Source: an uncultured Bacillales bacterium (GTDB taxonomy: Bacteria > Bacillota_I > Bacilli_A > RFN20 > CAG-449). Taken from it: 64,000 bases of DNA. Shown in pieces: positions 38,153 through 59,630 of this stretch. Under the pieces are notes generated by a model. The model ran no database searches and was not told the DNA's origin. It saw only the letters and a program-made list of their open reading frames with translations. Numbering within the stretch: the first letter of the stretch is position 1; every line of letters begins with the position of its first letter. Made by a program: the position numbers and the translations under genes. The DNA is taken from NCBI GenBank assembly GCA_946641515.1, contig CAMPBT010000003.1, positions 56,079 through 120,078 on the forward strand, given 5' to 3'.

Positions 38153-38270
38153 TTTTTGGATACTTATGTAACGCCTCTACTTTTATATCCTTTTATTAAG
38201 TATGATAATCGAGGCTTTTGAAAAAAGGCACGCGAATAAAATCATTAGTATAAATAAAGGAGAAAGAAAT

Positions 38271-38765
38271 ATGAAGTTATTAAATAGAGTTACATTATTA
38301 TCAGTCTTAGGTATCTCAGCATTAGTAGGTACAGGTTACGCTGCATGGACATTCTCTGCATCAGCAGAAAACAAAACAGCAAACGCAGCACTCTTAATCA
38401 CAGATGCAAACACTGTTGGTGAAATCTCATTCAAAACAAATACAGCAAAATTCACTTTAGATCAATCAGGTATCACATGGGAAGGTGAAATCGTTGCAGA
38501 TTATTCTTCAGTTGGTTCAGAAGTTGAAGATCCATCAATTGAAAAATCATGGACAGCAGCAATTCCTGCAGAATTAGCAACATACGTTACATTCGTAGAT
38601 GCTTCAACAACAATCTCAGGCACATGGGAAGATGATGTTGCAATCGTTTTACCAGAACTCGTTTACACAGCAAACAAGCCAACAACAAAATCAGCTTACG
38701 ATACAATGGTTAGCTTAATCTCAGAATCAAATATCACATTCACATTCTCAGCAACAATTGCATAA
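38271..38765 (+). CDS. small exported TasA/camelysin-like protein with SipW-cognate-type signal peptide (paralog A1)
   Basis: ORF 38202..38765. Start preferred at ATG 38271, with AAAGGAGAAAG RBS. N-terminus MKLLNRVTLLSVLGISALVGTGYAAWTFSAS. C-terminus ...NITFTFSATIA. Paralogous to 50973..51503 and 53022..53507. Confidence 0.7.
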   Translation: MKLLNRVTLLSVLGISALVGTGYAAWTFSASAENKTANAALLITDANTVGEISFKTNTAKFTLDQSGITWEGEIVADYSSVGSEVEDPSIEKSWTAAIPAELATYVTFVDASTTISGTWEDDVAIVLPELVYTANKPTTKSAYDTMVSLISESNITFTFSATIA

Positions 38766-38865
38766 TATATTTAATTAACTTACATATATAATAAATCGGC
38801 CGTAGTTCAGAAATGCACTTCGGCCATTATCATAAATAATGGTTCAAAGAAAGGAGGTACCAGTT

Positions 38866-39801
38866 ATGAAAAAAATCAAAATGATCTTAACAGCATTAAT
38901 TGGTGCTCTATTTCTTGGAACAGCCGCTGCTACAGTAGCTACAACAGGATTTGCAGCATGGACATTCTCTTCAAATTCTTACAACACTCAATCAATCAGA
39001 GGTGCAATAAACGAATGGGAATTTGCTTCTTATGAAAGCATCTTTGAATTTGATGAAGAAACAGGAACTATCTTATACATCAAACAAATCATTGATGAAA
39101 ATGGAACAGTCACTGTACCAAATGAAATTAACGGTGTCCCAGTTACACATATTGACAAGTATGCATTTAGCAATCAGCCTAGTTTAACATCAATTGTTAT
39201 CGAAGCAGAAAACTTAACAATTGAAAGCTATGCTTTCTATGGTGACTACAACTTAAAAGAAATCACTTTACCTTCTTCAACAAAATTACTCAAATATTCA
39301 TTTGCTAATTCAGGATCATATAACTCAGATACAAAGACATATTCAATTGACAGCGTTACATTCACAGGAAGCGCTACTGAATTAACAGGTAACCAAGTAT
39401 TCAAAGGATTAGAAATTAACACAATTACAATCCCTGCAATCGTTACTAACGTTGAAAAATCATTCTTCGATGGTGTTGAAGATTACGAAATGATCAATTA
39501 CGGTGGATCTGTTGAAGACTTCGTTGGTACAGATCATAACAACGATACATATTCAATCTTTGAAGGTTTAGTTTATAACTTACGTAATAGAAATGCTGGT
39601 ACATATGCTTACCAAGCTCCAACAGCATTAACAATCTCTGGCAGAGTATTCTACTTAAATCAAAGCAACTTTACACAGAACTTATTACATTACTACGCAG
39701 AAGATGGTTCATATATTGTATATAACTTTAACAATCGTGTTAAGGTTAGCGGCAGCACATACGATAACTCAAATTGCTACTATTATTACATTGCAGAATA
39801 A
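38866..39801 (+). CDS. exported BspA-type leucine-rich-repeat (LRR_5-like) protein with SipW-cognate-type signal peptide (paralog B1)
   Basis: ORF 38839..39801. Start preferred at ATG 38866, with AAAGGAGG RBS. N-terminus MKKIKMILTALIGALFLGTAAATVATTGFAAWTFSS. LRR_5-like repeats (VTVPNEINGVPVTHIDKYAFSNQPSLTSIVI...). Terminator at 39802-39840. Confidence 0.65.
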   Translation: MKKIKMILTALIGALFLGTAAATVATTGFAAWTFSSNSYNTQSIRGAINEWEFASYESIFEFDEETGTILYIKQIIDENGTVTVPNEINGVPVTHIDKYAFSNQPSLTSIVIEAENLTIESYAFYGDYNLKEITLPSSTKLLKYSFANSGSYNSDTKTYSIDSVTFTGSATELTGNQVFKGLEINTITIPAIVTNVEKSFFDGVEDYEMINYGGSVEDFVGTDHNNDTYSIFEGLVYNLRNRNAGTYAYQAPTALTISGRVFYLNQSNFTQNLLHYYAEDGSYIVYNFNNRVKVSGSTYDNSNCYYYYIAE

Positions 39802-40019
39802 AATGCAAAACGGCTCAATGAGCCGTTTTCTTTTGCATTAAGCACAAATTACAATTACATTTATATAAATCTCTTAAATAGGCTTAAACTAATAAATAAC
39901 AAGCATTCACAGTTTAATAATAATATTAAAAATTACAAAGAACATATTTCTCTTTGGCATATTTTTTACATCTAAATAAAGTAAATCGAGTAGGGAGTAA
40001 AATTAGATAATTTCCTCTC

Positions 40020-40560
40020 CCTCTCACACCACGTAACGTGCCGTTCGGCATTACGCGGTTCAACTTACTTTTAAAGTATGCCTTGACATACTTTCCGCTT
40101 CTTCTCCTTTCCGCTTCTAAGATTTATTTCCTACGTATTGGATATTCTTTGAGATACGCTCATACCTTTTCCTGTCGGATATACCTTAGAAACATACATT
40201 TGTTAAAGCGATGTAAATTGTTTGGTCCTTCCTCTACTGAGTACTATGACCTCTGCTGACTTCCTATAGTTCGCTTTTCTAGGATTTCTCCTCTATAGGA
40301 CCTCACGGGATAAGTTATATATCTTTCCTCGTTTACCTACCTAATTTACGGATTAAGATTACGTTTGCCTTTTGGACTTTATTGCTTTTGGTCAACTTGT
40401 CCACTTAATTCGCCTTGATATTAGGTTTCTATTCGTTAGGCCACGATTTCGCTATCCCTTCTTTTCATGCGTAGTTACCTAGAGGCACTTTGGGAGTCGC
40501 TATCGGGTTGGTCGGCAAATACCTCTCTTCGGACTTTCATCGTAGATATATGACATGCCC
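40020..40560 (-). ncRNA. ORF-free, strand-asymmetric (purine-rich on minus strand) structured region; candidate large ncRNA of unassigned class
   Basis: About 540 nt with no credible ORF; the 73-aa frame at 40038..40259 is low-complexity. Multiple local hairpins, e.g. CGTAATGCCGAACGGCACGTTACG and GAAAGTATGTCAAGGCATACTTT. Bounded by the LRR-gene terminator at 39802-39840 and the rpsR terminator at 40566-40600. Strand assignment is tentative. Confidence 0.3.
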
Positions 40561-40565
40561 GTCAT

Positions 40566-40600
40566 ACCAAAAAAACCGTCCAATTAATGGACGGCTTAAT
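40566..40600 (-). terminator. intrinsic terminator of the rpsF-ssb-rpsR operon
   Basis: On the minus strand: GCCGTCCATTAATTGGACGG followed by TTTTTTT. Confidence 0.8.
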
Positions 40601-40620
40601 TTGCTTTTTGTTTTCCTTAA

Positions 40621-40848
40621 TTAGTCTTCTACGTAAGGAAGAAGTGCAACGAATCTTGCGTTTTTGATTGCTTGTTCGACTGCTCTCTGGTGCTTTGCAC
40701 AAGTACCAGTGACTCTTCTTGGAGAAATCTTTCCGTTTGGAGAGATGAATTTCTTTAATAATTCAACATCCTTATAGTCGATTTCCTGGTTTTTATTCTT
40801 ACAGAAGATACAAACCTTTTTTCTAGGTCTCATTTTCTTAAAAGCCAT
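40621..40848 (-). CDS. rpsR: 30S ribosomal protein S18
   Basis: ORF 40621..40872. Start probably at [13 protein letters not shown].... Conserved CxFC and RRVTG...KHQR motifs. Confidence 0.9.
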
Positions 40849-59482: not shown

Positions 59483-59630
59483 CCTTTCAGACCTAGTACG
59501 CCCAAAAGGATAGAATAAAATACATTGTGTTAGAATCCTTCCGCTAGCATTACCTAGATCAAGTTATTGGTCCCATAAGTCACACTTATGATCTCAGCCT
59601 AGTTTACTAAGCACCCATACTAAATTGTTT
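59483..59630 (-). promoter_or_regulatory. TPP (THI-box) riboswitch with SD-sequestering terminator hairpin
   Basis: Minus-strand RNA: UGGGUGCUUAG...GGCUGAGAUCAUAAGUGUGACUUAUGGGACCAAUAACUUGAUCUAGGUAAUGCUAGCGGAAGGA matches the THI element consensus (CUGAGA, ACCUGAUCUGGAUAAUGCCAGCG-AGGGA). Expression platform CCUUUUGGGCGUACUAGGUCUGAAAGG plus U7 lies immediately before the ATG at 59474; its 3' arm holds AAAGGA (SD). Confidence 0.85.

Follow-up and report, generated by a model that had tools for sequence, protein, structure and literature searches.

An ORF-less group IIC intron behind the rpsR terminator of an uncultured Bacillales bacterium

The window analysed here is the whole 64,000-nt stretch of contig CAMPBT010000003.1 from an uncultured Bacillales bacterium. 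Its rpsF-ssb-rpsR operon is separated from a convergent LRR_5 gene by a spacer of 819 nt, which runs between the stop codons of LRR_5 (39801) and rpsR (40621). We find that this spacer holds an element of 583 nt on the minus strand, 40567..39985, which is almost certainly a group IIC intron without an open reading frame (ORF). The six domains of the intron account for every part of the region. Such remnants of mobile elements are known, though uncommon, and the element does not represent a new class of RNA.

The identification came from Infernal searches against Rfam with the group II models included, a check that an earlier, sequence-only reading of the spacer had proposed. We scanned the 64-kb window at gathering scores, 900 nt (39800-40700) at E<=10, and a piece of 161 nt. 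Two models were matched over their complete length on the minus strand: RF02001 (group-II-D1D4-3) at 40484..40317, with 96.6 bits against a gathering score of 32, and RF01998 (group-II-D1D4-1) at 40299..40225, with 46.9 bits against a gathering score of 35. RF00029, the model for domains V and VI (DV-DVI), likewise matched in full, over 40060..39985 on the same strand, in the 161-nt search (40.6 bits, E = 4e-07), ending on ...CUACUCGAU. The E-values of the three group II matches are 3e-20, 3.5e-07 and 4e-07, and a full-length relative of the intron, described below, gives the same three matches. RF00029 was not reported by the 64-kb scan at gathering scores or by the 900-nt scan at E<=10, which is a filter effect. 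Its score lies right at the gathering threshold (40.6 vs 40).

Against shuffled controls, the RNA has a folding z-score of -4.45. The minimum free energy (MFE) fold contains a canonical DV of 13 pairs with a 2-nt bulge; in its DVI an A bulges out seven nt before the end. DV and DVI as folded by RNAalifold agree with the MFE fold, with one compensatory pair in each. In the family alignment a few compensatory pairs are found in domains I, II, III, V and VI, including a change from U-A to C-G in DV of two copies (L030/L031). Because the family is 88-96% identical, helix covariation within the ribozyme is weak. The 3' end AU fits the AY consensus. The 5' end reads GUAUG where the consensus is GUGYG, with A replacing G3. 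Since every family copy has GUAUG, including those that encode a reverse transcriptase (RT), this end is a family trait and not damage.

The sequence-only reading had described a spacer of more than 500 nt without a plausible ORF, with a GC content locally above that of its flanks and a purine bias on the minus strand, and all three observations hold. The ORF listing has a single frame of at least 60 amino acids (aa) within 40020-40560, a 73-aa plus-strand frame at 40038..40259; an exact look-up of its product, which served as a marker for ORF-less copies, returned no record in a public collection of called genes. GC content is 0.38-0.44 inside the element, compared to 0.25-0.29 in adjacent intergenic DNA and 0.304 in the whole window. 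Within the element the plus-strand AT skew (-0.22 to -0.34) and GC skew (-0.10 to -0.34) are both negative, and the minus strand is therefore 61% purine. The same reading had placed a large structured RNA, not a protein gene, on the minus strand, as the group II identity bears out. Its limits, 40020..40560, fell on the right region and were slightly too narrow. The hairpin it singled out, CGTAATGCCGAACGGCACGTTACG, is real and is DV; the duplicated GAAGCGGAAAG corresponds to a 16-nt tandem duplication in domain IV; and a GAUGAAAGUCCG-like segment that it had weighed as RNase P, without finding a P4 partner strand, is part of domain I. It had also seen intrinsic terminators on both sides, of which the rpsR terminator abuts the element and the LRR terminator lies about 155 nt past its 3' end. 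The parts of the element and its borders are listed here.

40573..40597, minus strand: intrinsic terminator of rpsR, AAGCCGTCCATTAATTGGACGGTTT, with a 10-bp stem and T-run; a DNA stem-loop target of the IIC type (terminator scan).
40568..40573, minus strand: intron-binding site 1 (IBS1), TTTTTG, which closes the 5' exon with its final 6 nt and is the end of the T-run; pairs with exon-binding site 1 (EBS1) and covaries with it in six variants.
39985..40567, minus strand: complete ORF-less group IIC intron, 583 nt, 5' GUAUG...CUCGAU 3' (Rfam; boundary divergence of more than 20 copies; empty alleles for the 5' limit).
40304..40567, minus strand: domain I, 3' limit approximate (RNAalifold closing helix, columns 6-10 / 260-264; RF02001 at 40484..40317).
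40385..40390, minus strand: EBS1 loop, CAAAAG, intron positions 178-183 (EBS1/IBS1 covariation; position as for A184-A188 of the E.r.I1 intron, PMC10190682).
40263..40299, minus strand: domain II hairpin (RF01998 alignment, RNAalifold).
40224..40251, minus strand: domain III, preceded by the conserved J2/3 GAAGUCAGCAGAGGUCAUAGUAC (RF01998 alignment; compensatory changes in the domain III hairpin of L040/L047).
40061..40223, minus strand: domain IV without ORF, about 163 nt, with the D4a arm kept and a 9-bp hairpin formed from the former ORF start and end (alignment to full-length relatives; MFE).
40103..40118, minus strand: AGAAGCGGAAAGGAGA, first unit of a polymorphic tandem duplication of 16 nt that precedes the former start codon.
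40060..40089, minus strand: nine-codon remnant of the ORF for the intron-encoded protein (IEP), MSRHTLKVS*, with the deletion junction between 40085 and 40084 (translation).
40028..40060, minus strand: domain V, AACCGCGUAAUGCCGAACGGCACGUUACGUGGU; its triad position reads CGC and it has a 2-nt bulge (RF00029, MFE, RNAalifold).
39988..40025, minus strand: domain VI; its branch-point A (39991) is bulged and lies seven nt from the 3' end (RF00029, folds).
39984, minus strand: IBS3, a T, the first base of the 3' exon (T in all distinct family 3' flanks; dT-A231 in E.r.I1, PMC10190682).
39893..39984, minus strand: 92 nt between the intron and the post-terminator sequence of empty alleles, present only in intron-bearing alleles (filled vs empty comparison).
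39807..39829, bidirectional: terminator of the convergent LRR_5 gene, about 155 nt past the 3' end of the element (terminator scan).

More than 20 independent 5' flanks of the family share no common sequence. Each consists of a GC-rich hairpin, 4-7 T and 1-3 further bases, followed by GTATG; in the window, a 10-bp hairpin, T7 and G stand directly before the intron. All distinct 3' flanks of the family diverge after CTCGAT|T. The limits of the window copy are therefore placed where more than 20 copies stop being alike, at 40567 (the G of GUAUG) and 39985 (the U of GAU). Empty-site alleles, which read ...GGACGGTTTTTTTG|TTAGTTTAAGCC... (starting TTAG), set the 5' junction to the base. Sites made of a hairpin and a T-run are the insertion signature of IIC introns (PMC4424553, PMC1702495), which insert after terminators and lack an endonuclease (En) domain (PMC4424553). 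The terminator hairpin and T-run upstream of the window intron are intact, and termination of rpsR should therefore be unaffected.

EBS1 consists of six bases that follow GUUGAC, at intron positions 178-183. It varies among otherwise near-identical copies, and six EBS1/IBS1 variants were found: CAAAA/TTTTG, TTAAA/TTTAA, AGAAA/TTTCT, AAGAA/TTCTT, AACAA/TTGTT and TGAAA/TTTCA. EBS1 is complementary to the last 5-6 bases of a copy's own 5' exon, perfectly in 17 of 23 copies, with one mismatch in 4 and poorly in 2. The window EBS1, CAAAAG (40390..40385), pairs with TTTTTG (40573..40568) through five Watson-Crick pairs and one G-U pair. Exon recognition of the IIC type, which uses a short EBS1-IBS1 and a single EBS3-IBS3 pair and no EBS2-IBS2, is supported by the EBS1-IBS1 covariation and by the T at IBS3 in all 3' exons. 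We regard this covariation as the strongest evidence that the copies, including the window copy or its parent, were placed by reverse splicing. The sequence-only reading had proposed a covariation analysis, and the six exon-pairing variants are its main yield; in the helices covariation is sparse, with the few compensatory pairs given above.

A search with a 26-mer from DV returned nine loci in metagenome-assembled genomes (MAGs) of Erysipelotrichaceae/Bacilli. Five full-length relatives, L008, L013, L014, L015 and L016 (metagenome), are about 1.84 kb each. They are 95-96% identical to the window copy over intron positions 1-483 and 91-95% identical over positions 484-583. At the exact deletion point they carry about 1256 extra nt that encode a protein of 427-428 aa. 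This IEP matches TIGR04416 and has no domains other than RVT_1 and GIIM. In PDB its best match is 7uim_D, the Eubacterium rectale IIC maturase, end to end (E = 6.7e-156), followed by 5hhj/5hhl (RT fragments from R. intestinalis and E. rectale) and the GsI-IIC RT 6ar1; the IIA protein LtrA and the IIB T.el maturase match much more weakly. By its domains and PDB matches, the protein of the full-length relatives is a class C IEP, a class marked by RT, X/thumb and DNA-binding domains without an endonuclease domain.

Alignment to these relatives indicates that the window copy carries an in-frame deletion between codon 2 and the last seven codons of the RT/maturase ORF. The remnant reads ATG TCA | AGG CAT ACT TTA AAA GTA AGT TGA, or MSRHTLKVS*. 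In the RT-encoding relatives the ORF start, AAAGUAUGUCU, pairs with the ORF end, AGACAUGCUUU, to make the stem that bears the ORF loop, and in the window copy a 9-bp hairpin remains where the loop was removed (alignment, MFE). This gives a mode of ORF loss in which the whole domain IV loop is taken out between the two strands of its stem. The D4a arm, the maturase anchor in E.r.I1 (PMC10190682), is kept at about 95% identity, and the changes private to the ORF-less lineage fall mostly at unpaired positions. The 16-nt tandem duplication at 40087-40118 on the minus strand (AGAAGCGGAAAGGAGA then AGAAGCGGAAAG) is shared by full-length relatives, whereas L004 has lost one unit. No IEP among the 120 closest clusters ends in RHTLKVS, as a direct parent would. 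The T in this ending may be a post-deletion change that turned a G-U pair of the domain IV stem into A-U.

Among the closest known systems is E.r.I1, a IIC intron of E. rectale whose maturase is MarathonRT (PDB 7UIM; PMC10190682) and aligns end to end, as 7uim_D, with the maturase of the full-length relatives. The target of E.r.I1 likewise comprises a DNA stem-loop, a short spacer, IBS1 and a T as IBS3 (PMC10190682). Its EBS1 is at 184-188, compared to 178-183 here, and its D4a arm has a counterpart in the window copy. The window copy differs in having no maturase gene, in its 5' end GUAUG, and in its host, an uncultured low-GC bacterium, with relatives in Erysipelotrichaceae/Bacilli MAGs. This comparison is made on the protein alignment and the site positions.

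B.h.I1 (Bacillus halodurans) and O.i.I1 (Oceanobacillus iheyensis) are, in passages of PMC1702495 and PMC4748821, likewise small ribozymes directly after Rho-independent terminators, with a 5' exon recognised by a short IBS1 and a stem-loop. The natural forms of both encode an IEP and their ORF-less forms are laboratory constructs, whereas the deletion here is natural. The EBS1-IBS1 pairing is 5-6 bp here, compared to 3-4 bp quoted for B.h.I1. The DV and 5' end of O.i.I1 are presumably very similar to those of the window intron, which we take as a lead only. Natural bacterial group II introns lacking an ORF are scarce and usually reside together with related IEPs able to act in trans, according to the passage of PMC4424553 that cites Simon et al. 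(2008, RNA 14:1704). Like the window copy, those described there are complete ribozymes without an IEP that derive from retroelement ancestors. C.te.I1 (Clostridium tetani) interrupts coding sequence and splices alternatively, whereas the DNA around the window copy, behind a terminator, is non-coding. B.c.I4 (Bacillus cereus) resembles the filled alleles described below in having extra sequence 3' of the DVI end, with the splice site 53-56 nt downstream in passages of PMC1702495 and PMC4424553, compared to 92 nt here. However, B.c.I4 is a class B intron whose copies conserve the extension, whereas the 92 nt are absent from all other copies of the family.

We recovered the locus in many metagenome contigs at 97-100% identity. 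A look-up of RpsR gave conspecific contigs with an empty site (L020, L021, L026), 98.3% identical upstream and 94.3% identical downstream. Among the contigs read, about ten are filled and ten are empty. The intron is a presence/absence polymorphism within the species, which argues against a host function. Among filled strains, domain IV holds most of the polymorphism. Compared with the empty strains L020/L021, the LRR_5 gene and the adjacent 164-aa gene (window 38202-39801) are much more diverged (94.3% identical) than the ribosomal operon side (98.3%). Downstream of rpsR the DNA varies from strain to strain.

Filled alleles with the LRR flank also contain 92 nt (39984..39893) that are missing from empty alleles. 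No further copy of this segment occurs in the window or in any of the loci retrieved. It begins with TTACTTTA and is followed by TTAGTTTA, so that its flanks are near-repeats, and it holds a weak hairpin (CAAAGA...TCTTTG) and then a T-run. Because no other family copy has them, nor do L004 and L005, the 92 nt are probably flank DNA and not part of the ribozyme. The empty lineage may have lost them through an independent slippage deletion between TTACTTTA and TTAGTTTA, or they may have arrived together with the intron. The slippage reading implies an allele with the 92 nt and without the intron, whose sequence would be GGACGGTTTTTTTGTTACTTTATTTAGATG.

Several contigs join the rpsR flank or the LRR flank to other DNA. 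L004 and L025 are the same contig (L004 4352-5863); it carries the rpsR flank and an ORF-less-type intron, then an unrelated 3' flank with a small helix-turn-helix gene and an MNT/HepT toxin-antitoxin pair. L005 (4368-5423) carries the same upstream parts, then an unrelated 3' flank with an AAA_14/DUF4143 ATPase. The unrelated DNA starts 1-3 nt past the intron in both, and neither 3' flank matches anywhere in the 64-kb window. In L057 (2431-3508) a gene for a 301-aa membrane protein is followed by a terminator ending in TTTTTG, the cognate IBS1, and then by the intron, the 92 nt and the LRR flank. The first ~55 nt of its intron carry other variants (A5, G42, A55) and the remainder is window-type. 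L057 either arose by recombination with a second intron copy or is an assembly chimera that includes one.

Breaks in the assemblies add to this picture. Several contigs end within the intron, 52-53 nt inside its 3' end or 110-262 nt inside its 5' end. In several samples, contigs that bear the private 3' variants of the lineage break precisely at the intron ends. Many contigs end inside the intron (L009, L011, L012, L018, L019, L027-L029, L053-L055), as is typical of a multi-copy repeat. Full-length copies behave similarly: L030 vs L032, and L033, L036 and L039, show one 5' flank with differing 3' flanks, or related 3' flanks behind differing 5' flanks. Together, the alternative flanks and contig breaks indicate that some samples hold more than one copy of the lineage, and that the copies have recombined or the repeat has given rise to assembly chimeras.

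We also searched for further copies and relatives elsewhere. The 64-kb window holds no second copy of the intron. A metagenome scan for ORF-less copies at other sites returned 0, a number that is uninformative because sites with G at -1, and hence cognate ...TTTTG sites, were excluded. A scan for the intron 5' end with a -1 base other than G returned 4 loci, all full-length or cut by a contig end and none from samples with this locus. Viral contigs gave 0 matches to the deletion-junction pattern, and phage records gave no match. Plasmids gave only IIC introns of about 70% identity that cover 36-56% of the query.

Taken as a whole, the account that we favour, and hold to be somewhat probable in full, is that the intron is still competent and depends on a helper. 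A full-length parent or the intron itself, as a ribonucleoprotein with maturase, would have reverse-spliced into the single-stranded rpsR terminator hairpin, after the T-run. The site would have been recognised through the stem-loop, the 5-6 bp of EBS1-IBS1 (CAAAAG/TTTTTG) and a one-base EBS3-IBS3 contact; for this insertion step the evidence is indirect. The ORF loop may have been deleted afterwards, or an already-deleted copy may have been mobilised. Spared by the deletion are the D4a arm, the start codon, the last seven codons and a ribozyme that is essentially intact. The copy would now be a non-autonomous retroelement that, to splice efficiently or to move, would need a maturase supplied in trans by a related full-length intron. 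It would be transcribed only by read-through of the rpsR terminator, and splicing would join ...UUUUUUUG to UUAC... as the ligated exons. We infer read-through transcription and the need for a helper from general knowledge of IIC introns, as given in passages of PMC4748821, PMC1702495 and PMC4424553. On this analysis the intron is most likely a neutral passenger without a host role.

Several findings weigh against this account. Signs of relaxed constraint include a C-to-A change that breaks the distal G-C pair of DVI in all ORF-less copies, G28A in the window copy, which turns a G-C pair into A.C, and loss of the conserved G5 in L004 (G5 to U) and L057 (G5 to A). A simple precise insertion does not predict the 92 nt, and the 5' end departs from the consensus, though it does so family-wide. 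There is no full-length helper copy in the 64-kb window. Close IEPs (P0020, P0008) occur at 86-92% identity in similar metagenomes and none was seen in samples shown to hold this locus, so trans-complementation stays putative. The same substitutions, together with G112A in L004, the loss of the RT ORF, the lack of a helper in the window and the poor in vitro self-splicing of IIC introns, mostly by hydrolysis (passages of PMC4748821 and PMC1702495), speak for a dead relic: the same element, unable to splice or move after losing its maturase and now decaying harmlessly. We consider this outcome possible, though on the unlikely side. The ribozyme is still about 95% identical to its RT-encoding relatives, D4a, DV, EBS1 and the branch site show no damage, loops contain most of the lineage-specific changes, and the contig breaks at intron ends with private 3' variants suggest more than one copy of the lineage. 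A degenerate relic was also one of three options in the sequence-only reading. The element is not badly degenerate, with a core about 95% identical to RT-encoding full-length relatives and most lineage-specific changes unpaired, and the Rfam group II matches single out another of the three, an ORF-less group-II-like element, as correct.

Other readings fare less well than a helper-dependent intron. The copies could be live non-autonomous retroelements resembling miniature inverted-repeat transposable elements, mobilised in trans and acting as portable recombination points that swap DNA beside rpsF-ssb-rpsR, perhaps having brought the 92-nt 3' flank via a downstream splice site or co-conversion. 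The L004/L005 3' flanks, the cognate ...TTTTG terminator of L057 and the breaks at intron ends are compatible with this, and all could be assembly chimeras at a repeat; we think it improbable. If it were true, the swapped DNA would include LRR genes, a toxin-antitoxin pair and an AAA ATPase. Domestication as an element of the 3' untranslated region, which would process or stabilise read-through rpsF-ssb-rpsR transcripts or insulate the operon from the convergent LRR gene, finds circumstantial support in the position directly behind a highly expressed core operon and in the 97-100% identity among many metagenome contigs. Yet about half of the conspecific contigs read lack the intron (10 empty, 10 filled), the placement is the default for all IIC introns (PMC4424553), and high identity fits a recent insertion, so we give domestication very little credence. 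A novel large non-coding RNA of the OLE/ROOL/GOLLD/HEARO/raiA kind, or a diverged RNase P, 6S or signal recognition particle (SRP) RNA, would account for the missing ORF, the purine-rich strand and the strong folding, all of which are real. However, OLE, ROOL, GOLLD, HEARO, raiA, RNase P, 6S and SRP models had no match in 39800-40700 at E<=10, nor window-wide at gathering scores, whereas three group II families score above their gathering scores and full-length RT-encoding homologues exist. A new large RNA class is ruled out by these matches and homologues, and any such reading has next to no probability. The OLE/ROOL/GOLLD-class RNA that headed the sequence-only reading thus falls away, while its failure to recognise RNase P, SRP or 6S RNA was right. 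Equally negligible is a pseudogene left by a disrupted protein-coding gene. The first two and last seven codons of the former RT/maturase ORF are present, but these 30 nt are the sole coding remnant, and the remaining 550 nt consist of ribozyme domains, which do not code for protein in intact relatives either. A pseudogene was rejected on the basis that the ribozyme part has no protein-level homology.

The value of the intron is mainly one of annotation: it explains a 0.8-kb "empty" spacer beside a core operon for ribosomal proteins, in an uncultured low-GC bacterium of gut or rumen type. RT-based searches miss ORF-less elements, and Rfam fast filters can drop DV-DVI, so that pipelines anchored on DV-DVI could miss this intron family. 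The full-length relatives, the same-species empty alleles and the six EBS1/IBS1 variants form a natural data set on IIC retargeting of terminators and on ORF loss. If the alternative flanks are real, copies of the intron would contribute to strain-level rearrangement beside the operon.

Two further structured RNAs were matched in the window. A tmRNA, which had been read as lying elsewhere in the window, is a full-length Rfam match at 853-1226 on the minus strand (127.3 bits). A thiamine pyrophosphate (TPP) riboswitch lies at 59518-59628 on the minus strand, with 60.9 bits against a gathering score of 54.3.

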